A stretch of DNA of 64,000 nucleotides, from positions 2,720,001 to 2,784,000 of the forward strand of contig CM000151.3 of the NCBI GenBank assembly GCA_000004695.1, in the 5' to 3' direction. The DNA is from Dictyostelium discoideum. Taxonomy: Eukaryota. A program made the translations under genes and the position numbers. Below, piece by piece: positions 1 to 32,978 of this stretch (positions are counted from its first letter, which is position 1; the number at the start of each line of letters is the position of its first letter). A model generated the notes under the pieces. It searched no databases and was not told the DNA's origin. It saw only the letters and a list, made by a program, of their open reading frames with translations.

Positions 1-1057
1 ATTACAAATGTATTTCCTTTTGATAATGATGCATAAAAGAACATATGGAATGACACCCATCCAACACTAGTTGCAGAAAATAAAACTACATTTTCATCAT
101 TATTAACCTTTGAACTTAAACAATTCCAATGATATAAAAGTCCAACCAAATTACTACCATTACTTCTTACAACTGGTTTAGAATTACCAGTTGTACCACT
201 TGTATAAATTAAATAGATTGGATGACTTGATTCTACTGGTACATAATCATAAAATGGTGATTGATTATTAATTTTAATTTTTTTAATTTCTTCTTCCCAA
301 TTTAATGAATTTGGTATTATTGTTTGGAAATTATTATTATTATAAACAATATCATTTCTATAAAGTGTTATTACATTGTCAGGCTTAAAAGTTGATAATT
401 CAATTGCTTCTTTTAAATTTGTAGTAATATCAACAATTTCATCAAGTCCAACTCCCAAATTTGTTGTAATTATTAATTTTGGTGTAATTGTTTCAATTCT
501 ATCTATTAAACTTTTAACTGAATAACCATCGAATAAAGCACAATGAGTTGCACCAATACGAGCACATGATAACATTGCAATTGGTGCTTCAACTGTATTT
601 GCCATATAAATTAAAACATTATCATTTTTTGAAACATTTAAATTCAAAAGTACTCTTGAAAATTCACATACTTTTTCATATAATTGATAATAAGTTAATT
701 TTACAGTTTTCTTTAAATATGGACATTCATAAATTAATGCAACTTGATCTTTTTTTAATGGATTCTGAACTTGTCTATCTAATAAATTATAACATGTATT
801 TAATTCACCACCTTTAAACCAATCTGGATAAATTTCATTACCACTATAAACTTTATCATACATTTTATCCCTTTTTTATTTTTAAATTATATTTATAAAA
901 AATTTAATTATTTATTTAACTAATTATGTTTTTTTTTATTGTATGCATACCAATAAACATATTTAGTGGCTACTTGATCCCAAAATGAAATTGGGTCGGT
1001 GTTTATTGAGAATTTATAATCATTTTCATAATTGAATGGTTGGCTTAATGTATACAT
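1..1057 (-). CDS. Acetyl-CoA synthetase-like acyl-CoA ligase (ANL/AMP-binding), paralog A; cut off by the window edge
   Basis: Exon 2 runs 1..870 on the minus strand and begins DKMYDKVYSGDEIYPDWFKGGELNTCYN, which matches the N-termini of the other copies; the plus ORF 548..817 is its antisense shadow. Exon 1 is 951..1057 (MYTLSQPFNYENDYKFSINTDPISFWDQVATKYVYW). Donor is GTATGC and acceptor AAAAAG|GG. The gene continues past position 1. Confidence 0.7.
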
Positions 1058-1910
1058 TATTTTAATAGTTTTTATAAAAATATATTTTTATTATTAAAAT
1101 TTTCAATAATATTGGATTATATAAAAAATGTAAATATAAGTTTTTTTTTTTTTTTTTTTTATAATTTAAAATTGATAACTCTTCATATAATATTTACATT
1201 TAATAAAAAAAAAAATTTAAAAAATAAAAATTTTACGACGTCATTTAATTGTTTTGAGATATCTTTAGACTTTTTAATAATTAAAATATTATTTAATTTC
1301 ATTCTAATTAAGCCTATAGATATTACTTTTTTGAAATTATTTTTAAAAAAGGTATTTTTATGTACTTTAAAAAAGTAAATTGTATTTTTAATTATTAATA
1401 ATCAAAATGAAAAAATGAAAATATATTGTTTTTTTTTTAAATATTAATTGATTTCATTTATGTCTGTCCCTTAATGGTGAAATTATTACCCCCTTTCTAT
1501 GTAGGTAAATCATTTTTAATCTTTTTTTTTTTATTTTGTTTTTTTTTTACCTTTTCAAGTACTTGAATTTTATATTATTATCTTTTTTTTTTTTTTTTTT
1601 AATTTTTAAAAAATTAATAATAATTCTTTTAATTAAAAATTAAAATATAAAAAAACACATGGGGGAGGGGGTAAAAACCACAATGGGTAATTTATATATA
1701 CATTGGGTTGAATTTTATATTAACTTATTTCTTATTTTTTTAATTTTTTAATTTAACACTATTCTAATCCTAATTAAAAAAAAATGTTTTTAATAATTTT
1801 TCCATATTAGAGGTTAATATTTTACTTTTTTAATTTTTGGTAATTTTATTTAATATTAAATTTGAAAATTTTTAAATTTTTTAGTAAAAACAAACTTTCA
1901 AAAGATACTC

Positions 1911-2010
<100 letters not shown>

Positions 2011-2018
2011 TAACATTA

Positions 2019-4024
2019 TTATAAATCTTTAATTTTATAAAAGATTTCAACATCACAAACATTATCTGGTAATTGAAAATTTGTATCATTTAAATATTTA
2101 GAAATGATTTGTCTTTGAGTTTTACCAACTTTAGTTTTTGGTAATTGTGGAACTATTAAAATTTTTCTTAAAATTGCAAAATTTTCTATATCCTTTGATA
2201 TTATTGTATTAATTTCAGATTGTAATTTATTTAAATCAATTTGTCGAATTGATTGATTTTCTTCTTGTTGTTTTAAAACTAATATACCAATTGGTACATT
2301 ATAACAATCTGGATTATTAATACCTATTGAACAACATTCTAAAACTAATGGATGTTTTAAAATTGATGTTTCAATTTTATTTAATTGAACTTTATTACCA
2401 CTGATTTTAATTTGATCATCTGATCTTGAAACAACACCATAACAATTATTTTCATCTTTAAATCCTAAATCACCAGGGTAATAGTAACCTGGAAATTTTG
2501 TAAATAATTGTTTAAACTTTTCATCATTTTTATAAAATGTAGTTGTAAAACCTGGTGGTAAAGGTAATTTAAATACAAGCTCACCAATTTCATACAAAGG
2601 TAATTCCTTACCATCATCTGAAAAAACCTTTGCTTTTAAAGATGGAAATGAAACTCCACATGTATTAATTGGAATTTTTAAATTTTTATTATCAAAACCT
2701 AAAAATAAACGACACCTGTTTCAGTTTGACCATATACACGAGTTGATTGAACTTTTAATTTCTCCTGAATATAATTTGAAATTGATTCTTCAATTGGTTC
2801 TCCACCAAGTACCATTTCTTTTAAATTAGATAAATCATACTTTGAATGTAAATTTTTACAATCAGGATCAACTTTAATTAAGTATCTAATTGCTTTAGCC
2901 ATTGTGAATGCACAACTTACTTCATTTCTTTCAATAATTTCCCAAATATCATCTTCCATATGTTTTGGTTTTGTCACTCCTCCTTCAGACATAACTAATG
3001 TATATCCAACTGAAAATAAACCATATAATAGATTATGAAATGATACCCAGCCAATACTTGTATGAGAAAACACAACTTTTATTTTACCCTTTTGTATCAA
3101 TGTTTGATATTTAATACCTACCATATATGGACCATTACTTCTAACAACTGCTTTAGCACTACCAGTTGTGCCACTTGTATATATTATATATAATGGATGA
3201 CTTGATTCTACTGGAACATATTCATAAAATGGTAATTGATTAATTTCTTTGAATTTTTTAATTTCATCATACCAACTTAATGTATTTGGTATCGTTGGTA
3301 TATCATTTACTTTCTTTAAATCTGATTCGCTTGTAATATCATTTCTAAATAAAGTAATTACATTACTTGGTTTAAAAGTTGATAATTCAATTGCATCTTT
3401 TAAATTTGGTGTAAATGTAATAATTTCATCATTAAAAATACCATAATTTGTTGTAATTATTAATTTTGGTGTAATTGTTTCAATTCTATCTATTAAACTT
3501 TTAACTGAATAACCATCGAATAACACACAATGAGTTGCACCAATACGAGCACATGATAACATTGCAATTGGTGCTTCAATTGTATTTGACATATAAATTA
3601 AAACATTATCATTTTTTGATATATTTAAATTTAAAAGTACTCTTGAAAATTCACATACTTTTTCATAAAATTGATAATAGGTTAATTTTATATTTTTGTT
3701 TAAAAATGGACATTCATAAATTAATGCAGTTTGATCTCTTGTTTCTGGATTTTTTATATGAATATCTAAAACATTATAACATGTATTTAATTCACCACCT
3801 TTAAACCAATCTGGATAAATTTCATCACCACTATAAACTTTATCATACATTCTATCCCTTTTTTTTTAATTTTAAATTATTAGTTTTTTGCAATGACAAT
3901 TGAAAAAATAAAAAAAAGAAATAAAAACTTACCAATAAACTAAATCCTTTGCAACTTCATCCCAAAATTCTATTGGTCTGTTATTTGCTAAATCAATTTC
4001 ATTTTCATAGTTAAATTTATACAT
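2019..4024 (-). pseudogene. Acetyl-CoA synthetase-like ligase paralog B, disrupted
   Basis: The body is split into ORFs 2699..3850 and 2019..2597 by a frameshift or deletion near 2597-2700. It is missing the segment YCYDYKNLKIPINTSGFPFSSLKAMIFSDDGKELGVN that copy C (5007..6851) retains. Exon 1 is 3933..4024 (MYKFNYENEIDLANNRPIEFWDEVAKDLVYW). The splice pattern matches the intact copies. Confidence 0.6.
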
Positions 4025-4200
4025 TTTTTTATTAAATTAAACGATATTAATAAAATAAAATAATAATAAAAAAAAAAATAATGGTACATAAAAAAAAAAA
4101 AGTTTAAAACAATTAACAAATTGGGTATGGGATTTATAACCTTTTTTTACATATATTTGTAATAATTAATATTATCCTATTGGTTCAAAAACATTGAAAA

Positions 4201-4320
4201 AAAAAAACTTTAATACGGACATTCATAAATTAATGCATCTTGATCTATTTTTAATGGATTTTTCATATGAATATCTAAAACATTATAACATGTATTTAAT
4301 TTTTTAAAAAATTTTATTAT
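4201..4320 (-). pseudogene. Isolated fragment of the N-terminal region of an acetyl-CoA synthetase-like ligase
   Basis: About 120 bp nearly identical to 6700..6790 / 3705..3790 (the antisense of ...LNTCYNVLDIHIKNPE...), with no surrounding ORF. Confidence 0.6.
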
Positions 4321-4529
4321 GTATCTTATCTTTATTTAAATTTTGAACCAATAAGATAAAATAAAAAAATAAAGATGAATTACAAATTGGGGTGTATAAG
4401 ATATAATTTAAATATTTTTATTTTATTATTACTAGCTATTTTTATTTTTATTATTATTATTATTATTATTATTTATTATTATTATTATTATTTATTATTA
4501 TTATTATTATTAATTTAATTACCACCAAA

Positions 4530-4885
4530 ATACAGATACTTTCTCTTTCTTGTAAAATTATTAACAATTAATGAGGTTAGTAACATTCCTAAAGAACCCG
4601 ATGCCACAGGTAAGGATATATAATAAAAACCTCTTCAGCATTGTTCAGCACTCATAACACAAATTAAGGCAGTGGCACCACCGGGTGGATGTATTGATTT
4701 TGTGAAATGCATCCCGACAATTGCTAAACTGACCGCTAAAGAGTGCTACTTCAGTTTGAGCATTTGTATAAACCAAATGCACTCTAATGATTGAACCTAT
4801 ATGTCGAAATACTAAATTTCTTGGTTGAGCTAATGGTGATTTGGTGCTCCAAAAATTAATACAGTAGATGCTGCAAATGAACCTA
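4530..4885 (-). pseudogene. Truncated, degenerate duplicate of the C-terminal half of the HPP-family gene at 7455..8390
   Basis: Nucleotide similarity to 7498..7860, with internal deletions and frame disruption. It is flanked by the same ATT-rich repeats and the same upstream block (4320-4420 vs 7250-7350). Confidence 0.6.
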
Positions 4886-4944
4886 TTATTATTATTTTAT
4901 TATTATTATTATTATTTTATTTTTATTATTATTATTATTATTAC

Positions 4945-5006
<62 letters not shown>
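4885..5006. repeat. Imperfect (TTA)n microsatellite
   Basis: TTA/ATT run that ends at the stop codon of paralog C (5007). Confidence 0.9.
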
Positions 5007-5010
<4 letters not shown>

Positions 5011-7011
5011 TTAACATTATTATATAAATCCTTGATTTTATAAAAGATTTCAACATCACAAACATTATCTGGTAATTCATAATTTATATCATTTAAATAT
5101 TTAGAAATGATTTGTCTTTGAATTTTACCAGCTTTGGTTTTCGGTATTTGTGTAACTATTAAAGTTTTTCTTAAAATTGCAAAATTTTCTATATCTTTTG
5201 AAATGATTATATTAATTTCAGATTGTAATTTATTTAAATCAATTTGTTGAATTGATTGATCTTCTTGTTGTTTTAAAACTAAAAAAGCTATTGGTACATT
5301 ATAACAATCTGGATTATAAATACCTATTGAACAACATTCTAAAACTAATGGATGTTTTAAAATTGATGTTTCAATTTTATTTAATTGAACTTTATTACCA
5401 CTGATTTTAATTTGATCATCTGATCTTGAAACAACACCATAACAATTATTTTCATCTTTAAATCCTAAATCACCAGGGTTATAGTAACCTGGGAATTTTG
5501 TAAATAATTGTTTAAACTTTTCATCATTTTTATAAAATGTAGTTGCAAAACTTGGTGGTAATGGTAATTTAAATACAAGCTCTCCAATTTCATTAACACC
5601 TAATTCTTTGCCATCATCTGAAAAAATCATTGCTTTTAAAGATGAAAATGGAAAGCCACTTGTGTTAATAGGAATTTTTAAATTTTTATAATCATAACAA
5701 TAAAAATAACATGCTCCAGTTTCAGTTTGACCGTATACACGAATTGACTTTACTTTTAATTTCTCTTGAATATAATTTGGAATTGATTCTTCAATTGGTT
5801 CTCCACCAACTATTATTTCTTTTAAATTTGATAAATCATACTTTGAATGTAAATTTTTACATTCAGGATCAACTTTAATTAAGTATCTAATTGCTTTAGC
5901 CATTATGGATGCACAAGTTACTTTATTTCTTTCAATAACTTCCCAAATATCATCTTCCATATGTTTTGTTTTAGTAAGCCCACCTTCAAACATAACCAAT
6001 GTATATCCAAGTGATAATAAACCATTAAAAGCATTATGAATTGATATCCACCCAACACTTGTATGATAAAATACTACTTTTGTTTTACCCTTTTGTATCA
6101 ATGTTTGATATTTAATACCAACTAAATGTGGACCATTACTTCTAACAGCCCCTTTAGAATTACCAGTTGTACCACTTGTATATAGTATATATAATGGATG
6201 ACTTGATTCTACTGGTACATATTCATAAAATGGTAATTGATTATTTTCTTTGAATTTTTTAATTTCATCATACCAACTTAATGTATTTGGTATCGTTGGT
6301 ATATCATTTACTTTCTTTAAATCTGATTCGCTTGTAATATCATTTCTAAATAAAGTAATTACATTACTTGGTTTAAAAGTTGATAATTCAATTGATTCTT
6401 TTAAATTTGGTATGAAATTAATAATTTCATCATTAAAAATACCATAATTTGTTGTAATTATTAATTTTGGTGTAATTGTTTCAATTCTATCTATTAAACT
6501 TTTAACTGAATAACCATCGAATAACACACAATGAGTTGCACCAATACGAGCACATGATAACATTGCAATTAATGGTTCTAATGTATTTGACATATAAATT
6601 AAAACATTATCATTTTTTGATATATTTAAATTTAAAAGTACTCTTGAAAATTCACATACTTTTTCATATAATTGATAATAAGTTAATTTTACAGTTTTCT
6701 TTAAATATGGACATTCATAAATTAATGCATCTTGATCTCTTGTTTCTGGATTTTTAATATGAATATCTAAAACATTATAACATGTATTTAATTCACCACC
6801 TTTAAACCAATCTGGATATATTTCATCATCACTATAAACTTTTTCATACATTTTATCCCTTTTATTTTTAAATTATTAGTTTTTTGTCAAGACAATTTAG
6901 AAAAATAAAAAAAACTTACCAATGAACTAAATCCTTTGCAACTTCATCCCAAAATTCTATTGGTTGGTTATTTGCAAAATCAATATCATTTTCATAATTA
7001 AACTTATACAT
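5007..7011 (-). CDS. Acetyl-CoA synthetase-like acyl-CoA ligase, paralog C (intact; 2 exons)
   Basis: Exon 2 is 5007..6858 (614 aa ORF carrying the AMP-binding motif YTSGTTGNSKGAVRSNGPH, a GQTETG hinge and a C-terminal PKTKAGKIQR lysine motif). Exon 1 is 6920..7011 (MYKFNYENDIDFANNQPIEFWDEVAKDLVHW). The intron 6859..6919 has GTAAGT...AG and sits in phase 2 after the W codon. Confidence 0.85.
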
Positions 7012-7454
7012 TTTTATAAGGTAATATATGTATTATTAAATAAAATGATATTAAAATAAAACAAATAATAGTTTTATATAAAAAAAGTTTAAAAAAAATA
7101 ATAACTAAATAATAAAATAAAATAAATAATAAAAGTAAAAAAAAAAAAGGTGGAAAACAATTATTAAATCTGGTGTAGATTTATAACCACTATTAACTGC
7201 GATATACAATATTAATTAATTTATTTTTAATTTTTTTTTATTATTATTATCTTTATTTAAATTTTGAACCAATCAGATAAAATAAAAAATAAATTAAAAA
7301 ATAAGGATAATTACAAATTGTGGGGGTGTATAACATATAATTTAAATTTTTTTATTTTATTATTACTAACTATTATTATTATTTATTATTATTATTTATT
7401 ATTATTATTATTTATTATTATTATTATTTATTATTATTATTATTATTAATTTAA

Positions 7455-8390
<936 letters not shown>

Positions 8391-8829
8391 GTTTGAATAT
8401 TTATTTGTTGTAATTAATTCATCCCTATAATAATGTTGTCACCTAGGATTGTATATATAAATAACTTTAAAGACTAGTTTTTTTTTTTTTTTTTTTAGCA
8501 CGTTTTTATTTTAATTTTTTTTTTTTTTTTTATTTTTATTTTAATTTATTTTATTTTTAATTTTATTATTTTTCGATTTTATTTTAATTTTTTTCTTCTT
8601 TTGTTTTTCGGGATTCGTTTGACCTAAAAAAAAGTCGTAAAGAATGTTTTGGAATATTTTTAGGTTTGAAAAAAAAAATAAATAAAATAAAATAAAATAA
8701 ATTAATTATCCATATCTTCATCTTTATCTGTTTTTTCAAATTTTATTTTTATTTTTCATTTTTTTTTTTTTTATTTAAATTCATTTTAATGCAAATAAAA
8801 AATAAAAATAGTGGTGTTTTAAAACGCTA

Positions 8830-8863
<34 letters not shown>

Positions 8864-8892
8864 TTTATTTATTTAAAATTTGTTTTAAATTT

Positions 8893-9486
8893 TTAAACAT
8901 TACAATAGTAAAAAGTTGGATCATTTTTTGAACATTCATTTGGACTAAACCATCCATAACCAGTTGGAACAGTATTACAAACACTTGTGGAATTGTAAAT
9001 ATTTTTATATGGAATTGAAGAATTACAAGTTAATTCAAAAGCACCTTTATAATTTTGAATACATTGATTCAAGTATTCATAACCAATTAAACCAATATCA
9101 TCTTTCCAACTTGGATCATTTTCACATTTACCATTTGTAACTACACTGACTAATGTATTTTCAGGAATTTCGAAATCATCAACACATGAATAAACTACAT
9201 TCTCAAATGCACATGTACCACTGGCATTTGTAATATTACCTGTTTTTGCACCTTTACAACCACTATTAGTACCAAAAACATTTTGTGTAATCACTGTTCC
9301 ATCTTCGTTACATTCGATATTAGTATTACCATCTACGCACCATCCATTTAATTGATAAACAATTTCATAGGGTTGCAATGAACAATTGTCATCATATAAA
9401 TTATGGACTTCAATTTTTGTATATTTAAATCCAAAAACATATGTTGTAACCATTAAACAAATAAAAATTAAAATAAAAAATTTCAT
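8893..9486 (-). CDS. Secreted cysteine-rich protein, function unknown
   Basis: 197 aa ORF with an N-terminal signal peptide MKFFILIFICLMVTTYVFG, about 20 Cys residues and several N-glycosylation sequons. Confidence 0.6.
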   Translation of the reverse strand: MKFFILIFICLMVTTYVFGFKYTKIEVHNLYDDNCSLQPYEIVYQLNGWCVDGNTNIECNEDGTVITQNVFGTNSGCKGAKTGNITNASGTCAFENVVYSCVDDFEIPENTLVSVVTNGKCENDPSWKDDIGLIGYEYLNQCIQNYKGAFELTCNSSIPYKNIYNSTSVCNTVPTGYGWFSPNECSKNDPTFYYCNV

Positions 9487-9840
9487 TTTTAACCTTTCTC
9501 CTTTTTTTTAAATAATAATTATAATTATTATTATTATTTTTATAATGCATTAGATAAACAAATATTTTTTTTTTTTTTTTTTTTTTCAAAAATTTGTTTA
9601 TTTTATCCAATATTTTTAGGTTTGGTAAGGTGGAAAAAAAAAAGTATTTTTTCACTTTTTTTTTTCCGGCAACCCCTCTAAGACGAAAAAACTTAATGCC
9701 CAAAAAACTCGTGCATTTGAAAAAAAAAAAAAAGTATCTAAAAAGTTGGCAGGTCGGATATAAAATTTCCAGCACTAAAGCGGCGAAAAGTAAGGTTTAT
9801 GATGTGCTTGTTGTCAGTCGGTCACGGTACCCAATTACTT

Positions 9841-9877
<37 letters not shown>

Positions 9878-9905
9878 CCAGAATTATGAGTAGCTAAAAA
9901 AAAAA

Positions 9906-10409
9906 TTAAATTTGTTGTAAATAAATTTCATTATTACTACTTGTGTTATTATATTTAAAATTTGATTTAAATTGAAGTGATTTTAAATTGCCAGTTGGTA
10001 TGTCAGTAGCGTCAATAACAATTTGATTATTACTCTTTTGAATTATTGATTTCAATAAAATATCCTTTGTTCCATCACTATAAATTAATTTCAATGTATT
10101 TATAGAAATAAAACATAAATTTTCACCAACAATTGTAATCAATTCATTTTTTTTATTACTTTTGTTAATTGAAACACTTTTAATAATAGGAATTAAATCT
10201 ACCATTGGTTTTACTTTATTTGATATTATTGTTGTTGTTGTTGTTGAATTTTTTAATACTTTTGATGTTATTAATTCATAAATCAAAATATCTCTATAAG
10301 TTGATAATTTATGAAATAGAATTTTTGAGAAATTTTCATGATTAAATTTAAAAAATTCATTTAATTCATTTAAATCATTTTTATGGCATAATGATTTTAT
10401 AAAACTATA

Positions 10410-10492
<83 letters not shown>

Positions 10493-11354
10493 CAATATAT
10501 AAATCATGTTGAATGATATGATATAAACCAATTACTGAATTTAAATCTGCCATAAAATTAAATTTTGAATTTAAACTAGATTTTGAAGATTCTGATAATG
10601 TTTGATAAAATGAATTTATAATTCCATCAATTTTAATTCTATCAAATTCAAATAACCAACAAATTGTATTCTTTGCAATTGATAACATATTATTATTAAC
10701 AAAATTATTTAAACCTTGCAATTTTGGTATTGGATCATTTCTATGAATAATTGAATGAAATATATTATAATTTAAAATTTGATTATCTTCTAATGTTTTT
10801 AATAAATCAGTATTTCCAATTAATGGTGACCCAAATGTAATACATAGAATTTGTGAATTTTTTAAAATGGTTTCAAGTTTATTTTTTGATATTTGTAAAA
10901 TTATAGATATTGTTAAAATTTGTGATACTGATCCACCTAAACTATGTCCTGAGAATATTACATTATCACCATTCTCTAACCATTGAATTATAATTTGAAT
11001 TGGAAATCCTATTGTCCTTTTAAGAAATCCTTTATGATATGTACCTTGTTTTTCTTTAAATTCTTTAATACTATTTAAATCGGTTGTAATATCACTAAAA
11101 TTAAATTCTGTACCTCTAAATGATACATAATAGGTATTCCTTCTTTTAAATTCACTATTATTATTAATATCTTTTTCACGATATCCAATTATAAAAACTT
11201 GACCACTACATTCAATCTCACCTCTAATTACTCTTTCAATATCATGAGTTTCAAAATTTTCATTAAATTTTTTAATTATTGTTGAATCATCTTTTTCATA
11301 ACAAAAATCTGATAAATTTAAAGAGTTTAAAATTTCATCTTTGTAATATGACAT
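9906..11354 (-). CDS. Class-3 (fungal-type) lipase-domain protein
   Basis: 482 aa ORF. It has the GHSLGG nucleophile-elbow motif (GHSLGGSVSQIL) typical of the Lipase_3 family. A poly-N (AAT)n insertion lies at 10420-10490. Confidence 0.7.
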
Positions 11355-11739
11355 TTATTTATTTTATTTATTTTTTTTTTTTTTATTTTTTTTTTTTTAT
11401 CTTTATTTTTTATTTTTAATGAGATAATAATAAAAAAAAAAACATAATAAGAAATTAAAAAACTTTAAAAAAAGTGATTAATTAAGTGATCTTGATTAAA
11501 AATTAAAAATTAAAAAAAGTTGTAATAAAAATAAGTGGTTTTGACTCAAAGCGAGAAAAAAAAAATTAAAAAAAAAAAAAAATTAAAAAAAAAATAAGGG
11601 TGGATGTAAAATTTTCATCATTAAGTGAAAAATATCTTGTGGTCTCTTTTTTTTATATGCGAATAACCTTAAAAAGTTTAAAAACGAAATTTATTTTTTC
11701 TCAATTTGATAAATATTTTTAGTTTAATTCTCTGATTTA

Positions 11740-11830
<91 letters not shown>

Positions 11831-12162
11831 GTCATTATAATTTTTATTATTTTTTAAAAAAAAAAAAAAAACTACAAAGGAGGTTGATTGGATATTCTAA
11901 AAATCACTAATAATAGTCAGAATTTCTATCATCACTTTTTTTTTTTTAATTCAATTTCACTGAACCAATTTTTGGACTGTGGTTTAGTCGAGATTTTATT
12001 TTTTTTTTTTCAAAAAAAAAAACTAATCAATTTTAATCCAAATTATTGATATTAATTTAATACCATTTGTTTATTTTTTATTTTATTTATTTTTATTTTT
12101 TATTTTTGTTTTTGGAATAGCTCCCCCGATAACTAATTTCACATTAAAGAATCTTGTTTGTG

Positions 12163-12197
<35 letters not shown>

Positions 12198-12470
12198 ATT
12201 TTAAAAGGTTACAATTTAGATAAGAAAATGATAAAAAAGATTTTTAAATCTATAGCTTTTGATTTATATAGTTAAAAGTCTAAAAAGAATAATATTAGTT
12301 CAATTAATTTTTTTTTTTTTTTTTTAACAAAATGATTACAATAAAATTATTAAAATAATAATAAAAGATAATAAGTTTTTTTTTTTATTTTTTTTTTTAG
12401 TATAAATACTGGACTTTTTTTGAAAAAAAAAATCATAAACAAAAATCATTTAATTATTAAAATAAAAAAA

Positions 12471-13230
12471 ATGAAATTACTCAAATCATTATTATTCCTT
12501 GCATCAGTTTTATTTATTTCTTCTCAAGCAGAAAAAAAAGGTAAAAATTTTAATTTTGTAAAATTAAAAAAAAAAAAAATATATTAAGATTTATTTTATT
12601 TTATTTTTTAAAATATGTATAGTTACTGGTGAATTAACATTTTATGCTGCTGGTGATAATTGTCCACCAAGTGGTGAAATTGCATATCCAGGATTACATT
12701 CTAGTGCAGGTGGTTTAGGTACATATGCTAATCCAATCACAGTTGCAGCATCAACTGCATGGTTATCAGCTGGTAAGAAAGTATATGTAGCAGCTTATAA
12801 GAAATATTTCATTATGGAAGATTCATGTGAAGAATGTGAAAATGAATGGGACAGTAATGGAAAATATCATATGGATGCTTGGATTGGTCCAAGTACTATT
12901 CATTCTGGTACTACCAATTGTGAGGTTGCTTTAACACTTTCATCAACCCAATTTATCATTGATCCACTTTCAACCTATGCCGTTGATACAACCGCTTTCT
13001 TTAATGGCACCACTGGAGCATGTTTAAAAACACCTGATAATTGTGTTGATCAAGGTAATGAATGTGGTAACACTTGTCAAATTCCATCAAGTATGTCTTG
13101 TTCATCTGCTGCTTCAATGTTCCTTTTAAGTGAAACTCGTTTCAAAGCTTTAAATCCAAACCTTGATTGTACTAAAAATATTGCAAAAGGTAAATCTGTT
13201 TGTCAATCTGGTTCTTGTGGTGGTCCATAA
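12471..13230 (+). CDS. Secreted protein with a putative DPBB (RlpA/3D-like) domain and a C-terminal Cys-containing LysM-like segment
   Basis: Exon 1 is 12471..12540 (signal peptide MKLLKSLLFLASVLFISSQA), the intron is 12541..12622 (GTAAAA...TATAG), and exon 2 is 12623..13230, joined in phase 1. The mature protein reads VTGELTFYAAGDNCPPSGEIAYPGLHSSAGGLGTYANPITVAASTAWLSAGKKVYVAAYKKYFIMEDSCEECE...KYHMDAWIG. Confidence 0.6.
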
Positions 13231-13818
13231 ATTCCTCTTATTTTAATTTTAAATAATTTATCCAAACTTCCAAAAAAAATTAAAAAAAAAAAATAAAAAA
13301 GCTTTTCATCCGAATCTTGTTTGCACTAATAATATTACAAAAGGGTTAATGACCAATCTGGTTATTATTTTTATTTTCACTTTTTTTTTTATTATTTTTT
13401 TTTAAAAAGCCATTTTTTTATTTGAAAATAAAAACACCTCAAATTCCGAAAAGACAAAAAACAGGTCATTAAAAAAAAAAAAAAAAAACTGATTTTTTTT
13501 TTTTTTAAAGACGAAAATATATTATGTTGGTAATAGTTATTAAAAAAAAAGTTTCAACATCAAAAAACACCTAAATTTTTATTTTTGGTGCCCAAATAAA
13601 AAATAACTAAAAAAAAAAAAAAAAATTGTTTGAAGTTTATTATTTTATTAATAAATTAAAGAACAATGTTAAAAATATATAAATAATATAATAAATTCAT
13701 TTGTTTTTTTTGTTTTTTTTTCTTTAAACCTTTTATTAAAAAAAAAAAAAAAAAAAAAAAAATGAATTCAAATATATCATCATTTAATTGAATAATACAA
13801 TAATAATAATAAAAAAAA

Positions 13819-16217
13819 ATGAATAGATTAAGTGAACCATTTAATTATGACAAAGACTTCAGCTTTTCAAATAACCAACCAATAGAATTTTGGGATGAAG
13901 TTGCTAAGAATTTCGTTCATTGGTTTGTATTCAGTAACAATTTTATAATTTTTAAAAGTATTTTTAAATAAAATAATTTTTTAACACATACAATTTAAAA
14001 TTTTAAATAATAATAAAAAAAAAGGGATAGAATGTATGATAAAGTTTATAGTGGTGATGAAATTTATCCAGATTGGTTTAAAGGTGGTGAATTAAATACA
14101 TGTTATAACGTTTTAGATATTCATATTAAAAATCCTGCAAAAAGAGATCAAGATGCATTAATTTATGAATGTCCATTTTTAAAGAAAACAATTAAACTAA
14201 CATACTATCAATTATATGAAAAAGTATGTGAATTTTCAAGAGCACTTTTAAATTTAAATGTTTCAAAAAATGATAACGTTATAATTTATATGGCAAATAC
14301 AGTTGAAGCACCAATTGCAATGTTATCATGTGCTCGTATTGGTGCAACTTATTGTACATTATTTGATGGTTATTCAGTTAAAAGTTTAATAGATCGAATT
14401 GAAACAATTACACCAAAATTGATTATCACAACAAATTATGGTATTTCAAATGATGAAATTATTACATTTACACCAAATTTAAAAGAAGCAATTGAACAAT
14501 CAAATTTTAAACCAAATCATATAATTATACATAATAGAGATGATGGTGATTATAATGCAAATTTAACTTTAAAAACAATAATTGAAACAATACCAACGAT
14601 ACCAAATACATTAAGTTGGTATGATGAAATTAAAAAATTCAAAGAAAATAATCAATCACCATTTTATGATTATATACCAGTAGATTCAAGTCATCCATTA
14701 TATATTCTATATACAAGTGGTACAACTGGTAACGCTAAAGCAGTTGTAAGAAGTAATGGTCCACATTTAGTTGGTGTTAAATATACATGTAGATGTATGT
14801 TTTTAAATGATGAAGTTAATAATAATAATACTAATTCAGATTTAATTAAATTCTTTTCACATTCAAGTATTGGTTGGGTAACATTTCATGGTTTTCTATA
14901 TTCATTATTATCAACAGGGAATATTTTTATAATGTTTGAAGGTGGAATTTGTGAATTAAATCAAATCAAGTATCAACTTTGGAAAGTTATTGAAAAACAT
15001 AAGGTAAACAAATTTTTTATTGGTCCTAAATCAATTAGACTTTTAATTAAAGATGACCCAAATGCAGAGTTTATATTATCAAATTATAATTTATCAAGTT
15101 TAAATACAATTTTAGTTGGTGCTGATGTAGTTGAAAAATCAGTTGCAAATTATATTGAAAACAAATTAAAAAAATCTGCTTCAAATATATATGGTCAAAC
15201 TGAAACTGGTAATATATATTTATTTGATTTTAAAAAATCAAACAGATCCAATGTTAGCAGTAATAGTAACAGTAGTGGTAGTGGTAGTGGTAGTGGTAGT
15301 GGTAGTGGTAGTGGTAGTGGTAGTGGTAGTGGTAGTGGTTGTGGTAGTGGTAGTGGTAGTGGTAGTGGTAGTGGTAGTGGTAGTGGTAGTAGTAGTGGTA
15401 GAGGTAATATAATGGTAATTGGTCAGCCAACTCCTTCTTTAAAATCATTCATACTCTCTGAAGAAGAAGAAGAGGAAGTTTGTTATAATAATAGTGATGT
15501 TGGTGGTGGTAATAGTGTTTGTAGTGGTAGTAGTAGTGGTAGTGATAGTGGTACGAGTAGTGGTAAAAAATCATTAAATAAAAATGAAATTGGAGAGTTG
15601 GTATTTAAATTACCTTTACCACCTGGATTTGCATTAACCTTTTATAAAAATAATGAACAATTTAAAAAATTATTCAAAACAAATTTATTGAATATGGAAA
15701 AAGGTTATTATTATTTTTCAGGTGATTTGGCATTTAAAGACCAAGATAATAATTTTACAATCGTTTCAAGATCAGATGATCAAATAAAAATTAAATCAAA
15801 TAAAGTACAATTAAATACAATTGAAATTTCAGTTTTAAAACATCCATTGGTTTTAGAATGTTGTTGTATTGGTATTAAAGATGTAGAATTCTTGACTGTA
15901 CCAATTGGTATTCTAATATTAAATAATCAAAATAATCAAAATAATCAAAATAATCAAAATAATCAAAATAATAATCCAATTGAATTAAAAGAATTAGAAA
16001 AAGAAATAAATATGATAATTTCAAATGATATTGATAATCATCAATATTAAGAAGAATAATAGTTGTTAAGAAAATACCAAAGACAAAAAGTGGAAAAAAT
16101 ACAAGATCAATATTATCAAAATTATTAAATGATATCAATTTTGTTTTGCCAAGTAATATTAATGACTATGAATTATTTTTAGAAATTAAAGAATCTTTTA
16201 TAAATAAAACAGTTTGA
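13819..16217 (+). CDS. Acetyl-CoA synthetase-like ligase paralog D, divergent, with low-complexity insertions and a C-terminal frameshift (possible pseudogene)
   Basis: Exon 1 is 13819..13922 (donor GTTTGT) and exon 2 runs from 14025. The ORF 14032..16050 (672 aa) carries an (SG)n insertion, acidic and N/Q repeats. The frame shifts by -1 near 16030-16047, and the conserved C-terminus (LRRIIVVKKIPKTKSGK...) continues in the other frame to a stop at about 16217. Confidence 0.6.
15268..15403 (+). repeat. (GGTAGT)n hexanucleotide coding repeat encoding (SG)n
   Basis: About 22 tandem GGTAGT units inside the paralog D coding sequence. Confidence 0.9.
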
Positions 16218-16455
16218 ATTTTTGGGTATGTGTTTGTTTTTTTTTTTCAATTAAAATTATTATTAAATTATTATTTCTATTTCTGTATTTTTCAGTGTAT
16301 GTGGGTGTCAGTGGTTATTATTCAGACTTTTTTTATATTTGTTTTGTAAATAGTAATAATAATAATAATTATTGGATCAATTAATGATACTATAAAATTT
16401 ATTAGTTATTTTTAATTTTATTTTATTAATATCACATATCATTTTTTTTATTATT

Positions 16456-16487
<32 letters not shown>

Positions 16488-16551
16488 CTTTCTTCTTCCA
16501 TATTCAATAGTTTTTTTTTTTTTTATTATTATTAATACTTATATTAAAAGA

Positions 16552-18602
16552 ATGTATAGACTAAGCGAACCATTTGATTATTTAAATGATAAAACTTATG
16601 CAAATAATGAGCCAGAAGCTTTTTGGGATGAAGTTGCAAAGAAATTAATTAAATGGTAATTATTTGTTTATTTTTTTTTATATATTAATAATTACTAATT
16701 AAAATAACAATTTTTTTTTTTAAAATAAAATAAAAAAGGGATAAAATGTATGATAAAGTTTATAGTGGTGATGAAATGTATCCAGATTGGTTTAAAGGTG
16801 GTGAATTAAATACATGTTATAATGTTTTAGATAGACAAGTTCAAAATCCATTAAAAAGAGATCAAGATGCTTTAATTTATGAATGTCCATATTTAAAGAA
16901 AACTGTTAAATTAACATATTATCAATTATATGAAAAAGTATGTGAATTTTCAAGAGTACTTTTAAATTTAAATATTTCAAAAAATGATAATGTTTTAATT
17001 TATATGGCAAATACATTGGAGCCTTTAATTGCAATGTTATCATGTGCTCGTATTGGTGCAACTCATTGCACAATATTCGATGGTTATTCGGTTAAAAGTT
17101 TAATAGATAGAATTGAAACAATTACACCAAAATTAATAATTACAACAAACTATGGTATATTAAATGATGAAATCATTACATTTACACCAAATTTAAAAGA
17201 TGCAATTGAACAATCAACTTTTAAACCAAGTAATGTAATTACTTTATTTAGAAATGATATTACAAGCGAATCAGATTTAAAGAAAGTAAAAGATATACCA
17301 ACGATACCAAATACATTAAGTTGGTATGATGAAATTAAAAAATTCAAGGAAAATAATCAATCACCATTTTATGAATATGTTCCAGTAGAATCAAGTCATC
17401 CATTATACATAATATATACAAGTGGTACAACTGGAAATTCTAAAGCAGTTGTAAGAAGTAATGGTTCACATATGGTTTGTTTGAATTACTTTAACCGATA
17501 TATTTCAGAAAATAATCAAAGTACAACATTATTGACAACTTCAAGTGTTGGATGGGTATCATTTCATGGTTTCCTATATGGTATGTTGTCATTTGGATCT
17601 ACATTTGTAATGTATGAAGGTGGTATTATAAAAAATAAACATATTGAAGTTGACCTTTGGAATACCATTGAAAAACATAAAGTAACACATGCATTATCAT
17701 TGGCAAGCGCTATTAGATACCTTATTAAAACTGATCCTGAAGGAACAATCCTTCGTTCAAAGTATGATTTATCAAATTTAAAAGAAATATGGATTGGTGG
17801 TGAACCAATTGAAGAATCAATTTCAGAATACATTGAACAAAAGTTAAAAATAAAATCAACAAGGGGATATGGTCAAACTGAAATTGGTATAACTTATTTA
17901 TATTGTTTTGGTCATATTAATATCCCATACTACGCAACTGGTTTACCATCAATTTTCATTAGACCATCAATATTTTCAGACGATGGTAAAGAATTAGGTG
18001 TTAACGAAATTGGTGAAATCGCATTCAAATTACCAATGCCACCAAGTTTTGCAACTACATTTTATAAAAATGATGAAAAGTTTAAACAATTATTTTCAAA
18101 ATTTCCAGGTTACTACAATCCTGGTGATTTAGGTTTTAAAGATGAAAATGGATTTTATACAATTGTTTCAAGATCAGATGATCAAATTAAAATCAGTGGT
18201 AATAAAGTTCAATTAAATACAATTGAAACATCAATACTAAAACATCCATCAGTTTTAGAATGTTGTTCAATTGGTATTAACGATCCAACTTGTTATAGTG
18301 TACCAATAGCCTTATTAGTTTTAAAACAACAACAACAACAGCAACAAGATCAGTCAACTCGACAAATAGATTTAAATAAATTACACTCTGAAATTAATAA
18401 TATCATTACACAAGATATTGCATCATTAGCAGTCTTAAGAAAAATTGTAATTGTTAATCAATTACCAAAAACAAAAACTGGTAAAATTCCAAGACCAATT
18501 ATATCAAAGTTTTTAAATGATTCAAATTTTCTATTACCCGATAACATCAGTAATGTTGAAATATTTTATGAAATCAAAGAATTATATACGAAAATTAATT
18601 AG
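16552..18602 (+). CDS. Acetyl-CoA synthetase-like acyl-CoA ligase, paralog E (intact; 2 exons)
   Basis: Exon 1 is 16552..16655 (MYRLSEPFDYLNDKTYANNEPEAFWDEVAKKLIKW), the intron is 16656..16738 (GTAATT...AAAAAG), and exon 2 is 16739..18602 (ORF 16746..18602, 618 aa). Confidence 0.85.
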
Positions 18603-21496: not shown

Positions 21497-23040
21497 ATGT
21501 TTAAACTTAGTGATCCTTTTAATAATTTAAATGATTTCAATTATGCAAATTCTTTTCCTGAGGCTTTTTGGGATGAAGTTGCAAAAAAGAATGTTTTTTG
21601 GTAAGATAATACATTTTTTTCTTTATATAAAAAATATAAACAAAAACTAATATTTTTAAAAGGGATAAAATGTATGATAAAGTTTATAGTGGTGATGAAA
21701 TGTATCCAGATTGGTTTAAAGGGTGAATTAAATACATGTTATAATTTATATGAAACAAGTCTAAAAATAAAGATAAACAAGTTCAAAATCCATTAAAAAG
21801 AGATCAAGATGCATTAATTTATGAATGTCCATATTTAAAGAAAACTGTAAAATTAACATATCATCAATTATATGAAAAAGTATGTGAATTTTCAAGAGTA
21901 CTTTTAAATTTAAATATTTCAAAAAATGATAATGTTTTAATATATATGGCAAATACGGTTGAAGCACCAATTGCAATTTTATCATGTACTCATAATGGTG
22001 CAACTCATTGTGTATTATTCGATGGTTATTCAGTTAAAAGTTTAATAGATAGAATTGAAACAATTACACCAAAATTAATAATTACAACAAACTATGGTAT
22101 TTTTAATGATGGAATCATTAATTTCATCACAAATTTAAAAGAATCTATTGAATTATCAACTTTTAAACCAAGTAATGTAATTACTTTATTTAGAAATGAT
22201 ATTACAAGCGAATCAGATTTAAAGAAAGTAAAAGATATACCAACGATACCAAATACATTAAGTTGGTATGATGAAAATAAAAAACTTAAAGAAAATAATC
22301 AATCACCATTTTATGAATATGTACCAGTAGAATCAAGTCATCCACTATATATTATTTATTCAAGTGGTACAACTGGTAATGCTAAAGCAGTTGTAAGAAG
22401 TAATGGTCCAAATTTAGTTTGTATGAATTACTTTAACAGATATATTTCAGAAAAATATGAAAATATAAAATTATTTACATTTTCAAATGTCGGATGGATA
22501 TCATTTCATGGTTCCCTATAAGGCTTGTTGTCATCTGGATCTACATTTATAATGTATGAAGGTGGTATTATAAAAAACAAATATATTGAAGTTGACTTTT
22601 GGAATACCATTGAAAAACATAAAGTGACACATGCATTGTCATTGGCAAGCACTATTAGATACTTTATTAAAACTGATCCTGAAGGAACAATTATACGTTC
22701 AAAGTATGGTTTATCAAATTTAAAAGAATTTATGGTTGGAGGTGAAGTAATTGAAGAATCAATCCCAGAATACATTGAAAAAAAGTTTTAAAGCAAAAAC
22801 AAGATCAATCAACTCAATTGATTTAAATAAATTACAATCTGAAATTAATAATATCATTACACAAGATATTGAATCGTTAGCAGTCTTGAGAAAAATTGTA
22901 GTTGTTAATCAATTACCAAAAACCAAAGCTGGTAAAACTCCAAGACCAAAGTTTTTAATGATTCAAATTTTCAATTTCCAGATAATATCATTGACATTGA
23001 AATATTTTATGAAATTAAAGAATTATATATGAAAAGTTAA
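21497..23040 (+). pseudogene. Acetyl-CoA synthetase-like ligase paralog G, heavily disrupted
   Basis: Exon 1 is 21497..21600 and is intact. Exon 2 has a frameshift at about 21720 (KG*), an in-frame stop at about 22519 and an internal deletion of ~160 codons near 22790. Only fragmentary ORFs remain (21946..22521, 22525..22791, 22751..23032). Confidence 0.8.
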
Positions 23041-26224: not shown

Positions 26225-28240
26225 ATGTATAAACTTAGTGATCCTTTTGATTATTTAAATGATAATAGTTATTCAAAGTCTAATCCAGAAGCTTTTTGGG
26301 ATGAGGTTGCTAAAAAGAATGTTTTTTGGTAAATATATATCTTTTTTTTTCTTTGTTAAAAAAGAGATATTAAAATTAAAACAAAAACTAAGATTTTTAA
26401 AAATAAAAGGGATAAAATGTATGATAAAGTTTATAGTGGCGATGAAATATATCCAGATTGGTTTAAAGGTGGTGAATTAAATACATGTTATAATTTATTA
26501 GATATTCATATTAAAAATCCTGCTAAAAGAGATCAAGATGCATTAATTTATGAATGTCCATTTTTAAAGAAAACAATTAAATTAACATATTATCAATTAT
26601 ATGAAAAAGTATGTGAATTTTCAAGAGTACTTTTAAATTTAAATGTTTCAAAAAATGATAATGTTTTAATATTTATGGCAAATACATTAGAACCATTGAT
26701 TGCAATGTTATCATGTGCTCGTATTGGTGCAACTCAATGTACATTATTCGATGGTTCTTCGGTTAAAAGTTTAATAGATAGAATCGAAACAATTACACCA
26801 AAATTAATAATTACAACAAATTATGGTATTTTAAATGACGAAATCATTACATTTACACCAAATTTAAAAGAAGCAATTGAATTATCAACTTTTAAACCAA
26901 GTAATGTAATAACTTTATTTAGAAATGAAGTTTTGGATGAAACAAAATTAAAAAAAGTTCAAACTATTCCAACTATTCCAAATACATTAAGTTGGTATGA
27001 TGAAATTAAAAAATTAAAAGAAAATAATCAATCACCATTTTATGAATATGTACCAGTAGAATCAAGTCATCCATTATATATACTTTATACAAGTGGCACA
27101 ACTGGTAATACCAAAGCTGTTGTAAGAAGTAATGGTCCGCATATGGTTGGTATTAAATACTATACATTCCGTAAAGAATCAGATATACCTCAAATTGTAT
27201 TTTCACATACAAATATTGGGTGGGTATCATTTCATGGTTTCTTTTATGGTTTATTATCTGGAGGAAACACCTTGGTAATGTATGAAGGTGGTATTATAAA
27301 AAACAAACATATGGAAGATGATTTATGGATAGCTATTGTAAAACATAAAGTAACACATACGTTTCCATCCCCATCTGTATTTAGATACCTTATTAAAACT
27401 GATCCTGAAGGAACAATTGTACGTTCTAAGTATGATTTATCAAATTTAAAAGAAATATGGTGTGGTGGTGAAGTAATTGAAGAATCAATTCCAGAATATA
27501 TTGAACAAAAGTTAAAAATAAAATGTTTAAGAGTATTTGGTCAAAGTGAAATTGGCGTAACTTCATTTATTAGTGTCCATGCTTTAAATATTCCTTATAG
27601 AGCCACTGGCGTACCATCAATTTATATTAGACCATCAATACTTTCAGAAGAAGGTGAAGTTTTGAATTCAAATGAAATTGGTTTAGTTGCATTTAAACTA
27701 CCAATGCCTCCCAGTTTTACAATTACATTTTATAAAAATGATGAAAAGTTTAAACAACTATTTACAAGATTTCCAGGTTACTACGATTCAGGTGATTTAG
27801 GTTATAAAGATCAAAGAGGATTTTATACAATTGTTTCAAGATCAGATGATCAAATTAAGATAGGTTTTAATAAAATTCAATTAAATACAATTGACACATC
27901 AATTTTAAAACATCCATCAGTTTTAGAATGTTGTTCTATTGGTATTTTAAGTCCAGATTGCCATACTGCACCGATTGGTATATTGGTATTAAAAGAAAAT
28001 CCATCAATTGATTTAAATAAATTACAAAATGAAATTAATAATATCATCACGCAAGATATTGAATCACTGGCAGTCTTAAAAAAAATAATAGTTATTAACC
28101 AATTACCAAAAACAAAAGTTGGTAAAATTCCAAGACAAATTTTATCAAATTTATTAAATGATCCAAACTATCAATTACCAGACGATGTCAATGACTCTGA
28201 ACTATTTTATAAAATCAAAGAGTTATATATGAAAAATTAA
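26225..28240 (+). CDS. Acetyl-CoA synthetase-like acyl-CoA ligase, paralog I (intact; 2 exons)
   Basis: Exon 1 is 26225..26328, the intron is 26329..26409, and exon 2 is 26410..28240 (607 aa ORF). It is about 98% identical to paralog J. Confidence 0.85.
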
Positions 28241-30962: not shown

Positions 30963-32978
30963 ATGTATAAACTTAGTGATCCTTTTGATTATTTAAATGA
31001 TAACAGTTATTCAAATTCTAATCCAGAAGCTTTTTGGGATGAGGTTGCTAAAAAGAATGTTTTTTGGTAAATATATATCTTTTTTTTTCTTTGTTAAAAA
31101 AGAGATATTAAAATTAAAACAAAAACTAAGATTTTTAAAAATAAAAGGGAAAAAATGTATGATAAAGTTTATAGTGGCGATGAAATATATCCAGATTGGT
31201 TTAAAGGTGGTGAATTAAATACATGTTATAATTTATTAGACATTCATATTAAAAATCCTGCTAAAAGAGATCAAGATGCATTAATTTATGAATGTCCATA
31301 TTTAAAGAAAACAATTAAATTAACCTATTATCAATTATATGAAAAAGTATGTAAATTTTCAAGAGTTCTTTTAAACTTAAATGTTTCAAAAAATGATAAT
31401 GTTTTAATATTTATGGCAAATACATTAGAACCATTAATTGCAATGTTATCATGTGCTCGTATTGGTGCAACTCAATGTACATTATTCGATGGTTATTCGG
31501 TTAAAAGTTTAATAGATAGAATCGAAACAATTACACCAAAATTAATAATTACAACAAATTATGGTATTTTTAATGACGAAATCATTACATTTACACCAAA
31601 TTTAAAAGAAGCAATTGAATTATCAACTTTTAAACCAAGTAATGTAATTACTCTATTTAGAAATGAAGTTTTGGATGAAACAAAATTAAAAAAAGTTCAA
31701 AATATTCCAACTATTCCAAATACATTAAGTTGGTATGATGAAATTAAAAAATTAAAAGAAAATAATCAATCACCATTTTATGAATATGTACCAGTAGAAT
31801 CAAGTCATCCATTATATATACTTTATACAAGTGGCACAACTGGTAATACCAAAGCTGTTGTAAGAAGTAATGGTCCGCATATGGTTGGTATTAAATACTA
31901 TACATTCCGTAAAGAATCAGATATACCTCAAATTGTATTTTCAAATGCAAATATTGGGTGGGTATCATTTCATGGTTTCTTTTATGGTTTATTATCTGGA
32001 GGAAACACCTTGGTAATGTATGAAGGTGGTATTATAAAAAACGAACATATAGAAGATGATTTATGGATAGCTATTGTAAAACATAAAGTAACACATACAT
32101 TTCCATCCCCATCTGTATTTAGATACCTTATTAAAACTGATCCTGAAGGAACAATTGTACGTTCTAAGTATGATTTATCAAATTTAAAAGAAATATGGTG
32201 TGGCGGTGAAGTAATTGAAGAATCAATTCCAGAATACATTGAACAAAAGTTAAAAATAAAATGTTTAAGAGTATACGGTCAAAGTGAAATTGGCGTAACT
32301 TCATTTATTAGTGTCCATGCTTTAAATATTCCTTATAGAGCCACTGGCGTACCATCAATTTATATTAGACCATCAATACTTTCAGAAGAAGGTGAAGTTT
32401 TGAATTCAAATGAAATTGGTTTAGTTGCATTTAAACTACCAATGCCACCCAGTTTTGCAATTACATTTTATAAAAATGATGAAAAGTTTAAACAACTATT
32501 TACAAGGTTTCCAGGTTACTATGATTCAGGTGATTTAGGTTATATAGATCAAAGAGGATTTTATACAATTGTTTCAAGATCAGATGATCAAATTAAGATA
32601 AGTTGTAATAAAATTCAATTAAATACAATTGACACATCAATTTTAAAACATCCATCAGTTTTAGAATGTTGTTCTATTGGTATTTTAAGTCCAGATTGTC
32701 GTACTGCACCGATTGGTATATTGGTATTAAAAGAAAATCCATCAATTGATTTAAATAAATTACAAAATGAAATTAATAATATCATCACGCAAGATATTGA
32801 ATCACTGGCAGTCTTAAAAAAAATAATAGTTATTAACCAATTACCAAAAACAAAAGTTGGTAAAATTCCAAGACAAATTTTATCAAATTTATTAAATGAT
32901 CCAAACTATCAATTACCAGACGATGTCAATGACTCTGAACTATTTTATAAAATCAAAGAGTTATATATGAAAAATTAA
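30963..32978 (+). CDS. Acetyl-CoA synthetase-like acyl-CoA ligase, paralog J (intact; 2 exons)
   Basis: Exon 1 is 30963..31066, the intron is 31067..31147, and exon 2 is 31148..32978 (607 aa ORF). Confidence 0.85.

Follow-up and report, generated by a model that had tools for sequence, protein, structure and literature searches.

Organization of the locus and of paralog D

The stretch of DNA analysed here (the window) is 64,000 nucleotides (nt) of chromosome 2 of Dictyostelium discoideum AX4 (NCBI GenBank assembly GCA_000004695.1, contig CM000151.3, positions 2,720,001–2,784,000 of the forward strand), and all coordinates below count from its first letter. The window has a G+C content of 21% and contains a tandem cluster of acyl-CoA-synthetase-like genes, each composed of a short exon 1, a single small intron, and a long exon 2; four of them, paralogs A, G, H, and I, encode proteins with 100% identity to the AX4 entries DDB_G0273215, DDB_G0273305, DDB_G0273229, and DDB_G0273365. 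Paralog D, the second gene in the cluster, has diverged further than any other of these PrpE/Acs-like enzymes of the ANL family. It carries several in-frame repeat arrays and a single-base deletion near its 3′ end, and most probably represents a null allele of very recent origin, probably segregating, in a gene that is dispensable but was constrained until recently. The gene and its lesion are organized as follows:

13819–13922, + strand: exon 1, 35 codons plus 2 nt, encoding MNRLSEPFNYDKDFSFSNNQPIEFWDEVAKNFVHW, the start of the ACAS_N domain
13923–14024, + strand: intron of 102 nt with GT..AG borders and an unusual donor, GTTTGT
14025–16050, + strand: exon 2 as read in the AX4 allele, stopping at a premature TAA (16048–16050)
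16035–16038, + strand: frameshift site, at which one A of codon 706 (AAA, Lys) is deleted
16038–16217, + strand: out-of-frame C-terminal remnant, 59 codons plus TGA (16215–16217)

Exon 1 matches the structure of exon 1 in six paralogs when these are aligned. The AX4 product as it stands is 709 amino acids (aa) in length; residues of the 672-aa open reading frame (ORF) at 14032–16050 correspond to full-length residues after addition of 37. Repair of the frame gives a protein of 765 aa, or 728 aa if counted from the internal ATG at 14032, in place of the 730 aa given for a restored ORF in an earlier description made from the sequence alone (the original prediction).

In a neighbour-joining tree D is placed at the base of the cluster, although this placement is unreliable because the tree is without support values and D forms a long branch. 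Comparison of the N-terminal part of D with the protein database finds no annotated protein that exceeds 68% identity across the whole query, and exact look-ups of the 709-aa and 672-aa products in the protein collection give no match. The C-terminal part as a protein query yields two matches among 8000 candidates, with low-complexity words swamping the search.

Enzyme family, conserved motifs and predicted fold

Two Pfam domains are recognized in D as it stands: ACAS_N (PF16177; 59.7 bits against a cut-off of 27, E = 2.5e-16) and AMP-binding (PF00501; 158 bits against a gathering cut-off of 29.9, E = 3e-46). The AMP-binding match ends at profile position 330 of 384 because a Ser-Gly repeat array (LCR1, below) interrupts the domain, and AMP-binding_C is found only after frame repair. 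The core motifs of ANL enzymes are A3 (T/S-S-G-T-T-G-x-P-K), A5 (Y-G-x-T-E), A7 (Y-x-x-G-D), the A8 hinge (R-x-D), and A10 (P-K-T-x-S-G-K), which carries the catalytic lysine; A5 belongs to the N-terminal domain. All but the A10 lysine are in frame in AX4 D:

14710–14739, + strand: motif A3 (P-loop), YTSGTTGNAK, aa 264–273, intact
15190–15210, + strand: motif A5, YGQTETG, aa 424–430; strand E382–389 of the structural model (ORF numbering), N-terminal domain
15709–15732, + strand: motif A7, YYFSGDLA, aa 597–604
15766–15792, + strand: motif A8, SRSDDQIKI, the true inter-domain hinge by alignment to 5gxd (SRSDDQ, aa 616–621)
16074–16097, + strand: motif A10, IPKTKSGK, in the −1 frame; catalytic Lys codon at 16095–16097

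The nearest solved structure for the family is the PrpE entry 5gxd (E = 9e-92 with paralog E as query), followed by acetyl-CoA synthetases. An AlphaFold model of the 672-aa ORF has a mean predicted local distance difference test score (pLDDT) of 77.7 and a predicted template modelling score (pTM) of 0.79. Foldseek places 5gxd, 7mmz, and Acs at the top of its matches, with template modelling (TM) scores of about 0.7 and, for 5gxd and Salmonella Acs (1pg4, 2p2f), E values of ~1e-41 to 1e-45, and the model predicts the large N-terminal and small C-terminal domains of an ANL fold. The best NCBIfam models are propionate- and acetate-CoA ligase, although the scores lie far under the curated equivalog cut-offs of these bacterial models (285, 275, and 241 bits for TIGR02188, NF007815, and TIGR02316, with cut-offs of 955, 725, and 827); the intact paralog G, at 339–343 bits, is also under them.

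The −1 frameshift and the truncated C-terminus

The original prediction described D as an ANL enzyme that carries microsatellites in frame and a −1 shift near its C-terminus, and this is supported, the shift being a disabling one. The shift, which it placed at 16030–16047, lies at 16035–16038, with IPKTKSGK out of frame and the remnant continuing to 16217 as it had described. From position 16038 the −1 frame reads SSILRRIIVVKKIPKTKSGK...INKTV, and with exactly one base added near 16036 the C-terminus of D aligns gaplessly with six paralogs. The stop frequency in the window is 0.078 per codon and the chance of a 60-codon open frame is ~0.008; the homology of the −1 frame is stronger evidence than its open length. 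An intron that removes the shift was considered and rejected, because the two frames overlap by only 13 nt and both flanks are gapless against the paralogs, leaving no room for one.

The truncation removes residues 706–765, including the A10 lysine. In ANL enzymes this lysine is required for adenylate formation, and it corresponds to Lys609 of Salmonella Acs; the Foldseek matches include structures of that enzyme both as the K609A mutant and with Lys609 acetylated. Because the A10 lysine is lost, we infer that the 709-aa product is catalytically dead.

A second assembly, GCA_054883475.1, is 99.94% identical to window positions 1–17020 and has the AX4 sequence across 13819–16217, including all 22.5 units of the Ser-Gly array, the missing base, and the site GATAATCATC. 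Over these 17 kb it differs only by a TT indel at 8515–8516, a T/C single-nucleotide polymorphism at 9665, and an A7 indel at 12163–12169, all outside the D gene and with both indels in homopolymer runs. Because of these two homopolymer differences and the one polymorphism, it is not a copy of the reference, and either it derives from a strain of the reference lineage or the haplotype is widespread. Its annotation calls exactly the 709-aa truncated model.

Alleles of paralog D in related genomes

The syntenic D locus was taken from five further genomes by way of neighbouring genes:

L007, D. cf. discoideum, GCA_054859235.1: D intact, exon 2 in one frame, annotated as 758 aa, DIDKSSILRRIIVVGKIPKTKSGK
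L006, D. discoideum, GCA_054859355.1: D intact, aa 75–765 in one frame, annotated as 753 aa
L004, D. cf. discoideum, GCA_054859205.1: D full length with five private indels (−1, +1, −1, −2, −8)
L002, D. discoideum, GCA_054859385.1: first 344 codons of D intact, then 1.2 kb deleted (window 14953–16134)
L001, D. citrinum, GCA_054859145.1: 285-bp relic of D with a stop codon

The L006 locus is cut at its 5′ end, so that only aa 75–765 are seen, and the 753 aa annotated there is the exact length predicted from its indels relative to AX4. At the frameshift site AX4 reads GATAATC where other alleles read GATAAATC, a 1-nt deletion private to the AX4-type allele; L004, L006, and L007 carry GATAAATC and read DIDKSSIL in one frame, so L004 has no shift at this position, and A10 is in frame in L006 and L007. 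Comparison with orthologues, which the original prediction had proposed, thus reveals intact alleles in two genomes and different lesions in L004, L002, and D. citrinum. Disabling lesions are present in four of the seven genomes examined and all are different; D has been lost independently, in at least four ways, among close relatives.

In D. citrinum (L001 9923–11196) an annotated 226-aa ‘hypothetical protein ACTFIU_001970’ starts within the D relic, reading MEKGYYYFSGDLAFKDQ...IKIKSNKVQL and then unrelated sequence. The gene model is thus a chimera that incorporates a fragment of a pseudogene.

The intron donor also varies. All six paralogs have GTAA at the donor position compared with GTTTGT in D, and the latter is common to AX4, L004, and the intact L007 allele; L002 has GTAAGT, and the paralogs and L002 together fit GTAA(G/A/T)T. 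The difference is a 4-nt ‘GTAA’ indel (window 13923–13930, L002 8447–8455, L007 about 7458). GTTTGT was considered as an older shared lesion and a sign of decay and was rejected, because the intact L007 allele has the identical donor; given its presence there, it is probably usable. The neighbouring genes suggest that L002 is the genome closer to AX4, yet its donor differs from that of AX4, L004, and L007, and the distribution of donors among alleles points to lineage sorting or gene conversion at the D locus.

Selection on paralog D

Ratios of non-synonymous to synonymous substitution (dN/dS) were calculated by the method of Nei and Gojobori (NG86) with alleles projected onto the AX4 codon frame, and departures from neutrality were assessed by a binomial test. 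Among D alleles dN/dS is 0.13–0.46, and every pair rejects neutrality (p 1e-2 to 1e-11). AX4 gives values of 0.39 with L004, 0.37 with L007, 0.26 with L006, and 0.13 with L002, and the two intact alleles, L006 and L007, give 0.30 (p = 5e-9); p ranges from 1e-5 to 1e-11 for these five comparisons. Intact controls have similar values, with 0.29–0.32 for paralog E, 0.25 for paralog A, and 0.14–0.75 for three non-family neighbours. Over 622 codons the AX4 branch has 15 unique non-synonymous and 13 unique synonymous changes, a ratio of about 0.28 once site counts are taken into account. Because dN/dS is like that of intact neighbours, ordinary purifying selection has acted on D, inserts included, and the AX4 deletion is a very recent event.

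The suggestion that D is a decaying copy therefore stands only in part. The gene is disabled in AX4, although by a single lesion, with dN/dS of 0.13–0.46 and intact alleles of 753 and 758 aa elsewhere, rather than by the multiple lesions and neutral dN/dS of ~1 of a pseudogene. Deviations at conserved columns are weak as proof of decay: with the missing exon 1 and the truncated tail excluded, only three real substitutions lie at columns at least 90% conserved, and these are common to all D alleles. Shared by all D alleles are changes of GGE to GAD (aa 400–402; window 15122–15127 for aa 401–402), GDLG to GDLA (aa 604; 15730–15732), and SGN to KSN in A8 (aa 625–626; 15793–15798), at positions that are otherwise conserved in the family and in bacterial relatives.

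Low-complexity insertions

Repeats were called with Tandem Repeats Finder, and low-complexity sequence is present at four sites in D:

14817–14835, + strand: poly-N site, (TAA/AAT)6, encoding NNNN; a smaller array, located after A3
15272–15406, + strand: LCR1, a (GTAGTG)22.5 array, period 6, 96% matches, score 249
15460–15565, + strand: LCR2, an E-run plus Ser/Gly-rich patch, aa 514–548
15460–15478, + strand: E-run of LCR2, (GAA)6.3, encoding EEEEEE
15489–15565, + strand: second Ser/Gly patch of LCR2, imperfect GTAGTG-type repeats
15921–15972, + strand: NQN array, (AAATAATCA)5.8, period 9, 100% matches, encoding (NQN)n, aa 668–687

The (SG)n array, the acidic run, the second Ser/Gly patch, and the (NQN)n array near 15920–15970 had all been noted in the original prediction and are present at these positions; the poly-N site was absent from its list. 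LCR1 encodes 51 residues of (SG)n (aa 445–495) with a single Cys interruption and stands in place of ‘IPYYAT’ in the paralogs, and LCR2 replaces their ‘DDGKE’ hairpin turn. The NQN array occupies a variable loop of the C-terminal domain, at which paralogs E and F have poly-Q.

LCR1 and LCR2 are both situated between A5 and A6. The original prediction had taken GQTETG as the hinge and placed these repeats in the region that rotates during catalysis, but GQTETG is motif A5 and the A8 hinge is about 190 residues downstream. Apart from one other short loop, the only long segments of the D model with pLDDT below 50 are ORF residues 402–459, a coil between strands E394–398 and E462–466, and 482–509, between E472–475 and E521–526. 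LCR1 and LCR2 are thus predicted from the model to be disordered expansions of N-terminal-domain loops that lie upstream of the hinge and outside the rotating part.

All four sites are shared by the alleles, the intact ones included, with lengths that vary (in aa, except where noted as Asn runs):

LCR1: AX4 51, L004 18, L007 37, L006 15
LCR2: AX4 35, L004 37, L007 29, L006 46
NQN site: AX4 20, L004 18, L007 21, L006 20
Asn run at the poly-N site: AX4 4, L006 15, L004 26, L002 33, L007 about 23

The occurrence of the same four sites in intact alleles rules out repeats as a by-product of decay. The AX4 Ser-Gly array is the longest among the alleles and 96% pure, which agrees with recent expansion, and the changes in repeat length between strains would most simply have arisen by replication slippage. 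Microsatellites make up more than 10% of the D. discoideum genome, its exons contain triplet repeats at ~50 times the density of other taxa, and its coding repeats are roughly as length-variable as non-coding ones (PMC3460934; PMC9234386). The length-variable coding repeats of D are therefore typical of the species, and not the extreme example of tolerated low-complexity insertion that had been proposed, coding repeats being the norm in D. discoideum (PMC3460934).

Proposed history and alternative explanations

The reading that we consider most probable runs as follows. Four loops of the D lineage contain low-complexity DNA, with poly-N after A3, (SG)n and E-run/SG in consecutive beta-hairpin loops between A5 and A6, and (NQN)n in the C-terminal domain. 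These arrays are predicted to form disordered loops on an otherwise normal ANL fold and were present during purifying selection. A single A was lost from codon 706 in the reference lineage, so that translation ends four codons after the lesion and the last 60 residues including the A10 lysine are gone, with a predicted loss of catalysis. Together with the independent losses in other strains, this represents birth-and-death turnover of a tandem family.

Several observations weigh against this reading or narrow it. GCA_054883475.1 could come from the same laboratory lineage as AX4, in which event it shows that the base is missing and not its frequency in the population. If the comparison assemblies are Nanopore assemblies, some of the single-base indels in L004 could be homopolymer errors; this is less likely for its −2 and −8 indels and for the 1.2-kb deletion in L002, and neither the intact ORFs nor the 1.2-kb deletion nor the AX4-type allele would be produced by errors of this sort. 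A 2025 bioRxiv preprint on Nanopore assemblies (of D. discoideum and two cryptic-species strains, with D. citrinum in a companion) is a plausible source of the GCA_0548... assemblies, with no accessions in the part of its text that was searched. NG86 is a crude estimator at 21% G+C, although AT-biased mutation is expected to push a neutral dN/dS estimate up and not down. The NCBIfam scores for propionate- and acetate-CoA ligase are far under the curated cut-offs, and these bacterial models assign no substrate to D. From the shared GAD, GDLA, and KSN changes, even the intact alleles may not be standard ligases, with catalysis altered or weakened.

Of the alternatives, it is improbable that D is an old, dead pseudogene across the species complex whose arrays grew after constraint was lost. 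Such a history would be in keeping with disabling lesions in more than half of the genomes, with D having the longest branch and the most conserved-column deviations among close paralogs, with an AX4 Ser-Gly array by far the longest, and with the 68% ceiling on identity to database proteins over the full query. It does not fit a dN/dS range indistinguishable from that of intact paralogs, two alleles with open frames of ~2.2 kb despite the high frequency of stop codons, lesions that are all different, or arrays at the same sites in intact alleles.

It is distinctly improbable that the 709-aa protein is still functional, either as an enzyme without A10 or non-catalytically, such that the allele is not null. 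The frame still covers the N-terminal domain completely and the greater part of the C-terminal domain, and the annotation of GCA_054883475.1 treats the 709 aa as a protein, but the catalytic lysine is lost along with the 60 residues that end the C-terminal domain, and other strains tolerate complete loss of D.

A sequencing or assembly error in a gene that is intact in AX4, which the original prediction had left as an option, is very unlikely. In its favour, 59 codons of the perfectly kept downstream frame match the paralogs, the region is rich in AT and in repeats, and intact alleles exist elsewhere. However, GCA_054883475.1 is identical at 16015–16085 and over the whole gene, and the site GATAATCATC contains no long homopolymer; an identical D in a second, almost certainly independent assembly therefore makes a one-off error hard to sustain.

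Bypass of the shift by programmed −1 ribosomal frameshifting or transcriptional slippage is extremely improbable, having only the preserved downstream frame in its favour against the absence of an X XXY YYZ heptamer in 16030–16050 and of a long homopolymer in 16035–16050 (ATT GAT AAT CAT CAA TAT TAA), a frame overlap of only 13 nt, and orthologous alleles that are unshifted, so that the shift is not conserved.

Comparison with known systems

D shares ACAS_N, AMP-binding, AMP-binding_C, the two-domain ANL fold, and motifs A3, A5, A7, A8, and A10 with PrpE (5gxd), Acs (1pg4, 2p2f), and animal ACSS-type enzymes, although identity is only about 22–25% at the level of the fold search. It differs from these enzymes in having YGQTE in place of WWQTE and GAD in place of GGE, as well as four low-complexity insertions and, in AX4, an out-of-frame A10. 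The neighbouring paralogs are 60–68% identical to D and share its two-exon structure, a first exon of 104 nt (paralog A: 92 nt), and tandem orientation; the SG and E-rich inserts, the GTTTGT donor, the frameshift, and six extra residues ahead of A7 are peculiar to D.

In common with other D. discoideum coding repeats (Scala et al. 2012, PMC3460934; PMC9234386), those of D are in-frame, near-perfect, strain-variable, and polar, in exposed or disordered segments. However, such repeats are usually AAT or CAA triplets, whereas the main array of D is a hexanucleotide encoding (SG)n and is located inside the catalytic domain beside active-site motifs, where a linker or tail would be more usual. D also resembles polymorphic (segregating) pseudogenes of tandem families under birth-and-death evolution, of which the Dictyostelium tgr family (bioRxiv 10.1101/2025.10.22.684067) is an example, in that strains differ in having intact or disabled alleles, losses are independent, and the cluster contains further damaged copies; but tgr genes form a recognition family whereas D belongs to a metabolic enzyme family and is without sign of diversifying selection (dN/dS below 0.5).

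Other damaged or recent copies in the cluster

A family copy between paralogs F and G (window 21497–23037, + strand) is a clear pseudogene in which F-like residues 29–404 are joined to 564–652 with an internal deletion of ~160 aa and a passage through frames 1 to 2 to 1. Only a 191-aa ORF is left (21946–22521), with a D-like start ‘MANTVEAPIA’ and F-like sequence afterwards, which suggests a chimeric origin.

The paralog at window 2022–4300 (− strand) is frameshifted near 2697–2701, directly after YGQTETG and in the same loop as the Ser-Gly array of D, reading ‘...YGQTETGVVYF*’ in one frame and ‘DNKNLKIPINTCGVSFPSLKAK...’ in another; the annotation of GCA_054883475.1 bridges this shift with an apparently artificial intron to give a 622-aa product. 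Paralogs H and I (26417–28240 and 31155–32978) have 97% protein identity and are therefore the outcome of a very recent tandem duplication in the cluster.

Implications

For annotation, D is best regarded as a real gene with a null allele specific to this strain. It should be labelled neither as a sequencing error nor as a pseudogene of ancient date, and a working enzyme should not be read into the 709-aa model. More tentatively, and with the odds somewhat against it, the intact alleles in GCA_054859355.1 and GCA_054859235.1 might encode an active, selectively maintained ANL enzyme with hypervariable disordered SG/acidic inserts of 15–51 residues in two adjacent beta-hairpin loops beside A5 and A6, in addition to the altered GGE-to-GAD and A8 motifs. 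If so, they would show, as an experiment of nature, at which points the N-terminal domain of ANL enzymes can accommodate large disordered inserts, and D might be a paralog that has taken on a new substrate or role and is lost time and again in natural strains.

The understanding of ANL enzymes and of Dictyostelium coding repeats is unchanged by D. The gene points to the N-terminal-domain loops in which ANL enzymes take up long disordered inserts, and it provides a small, clean case of birth-and-death turnover in which one gene is repeatedly lost while showing purifying selection.

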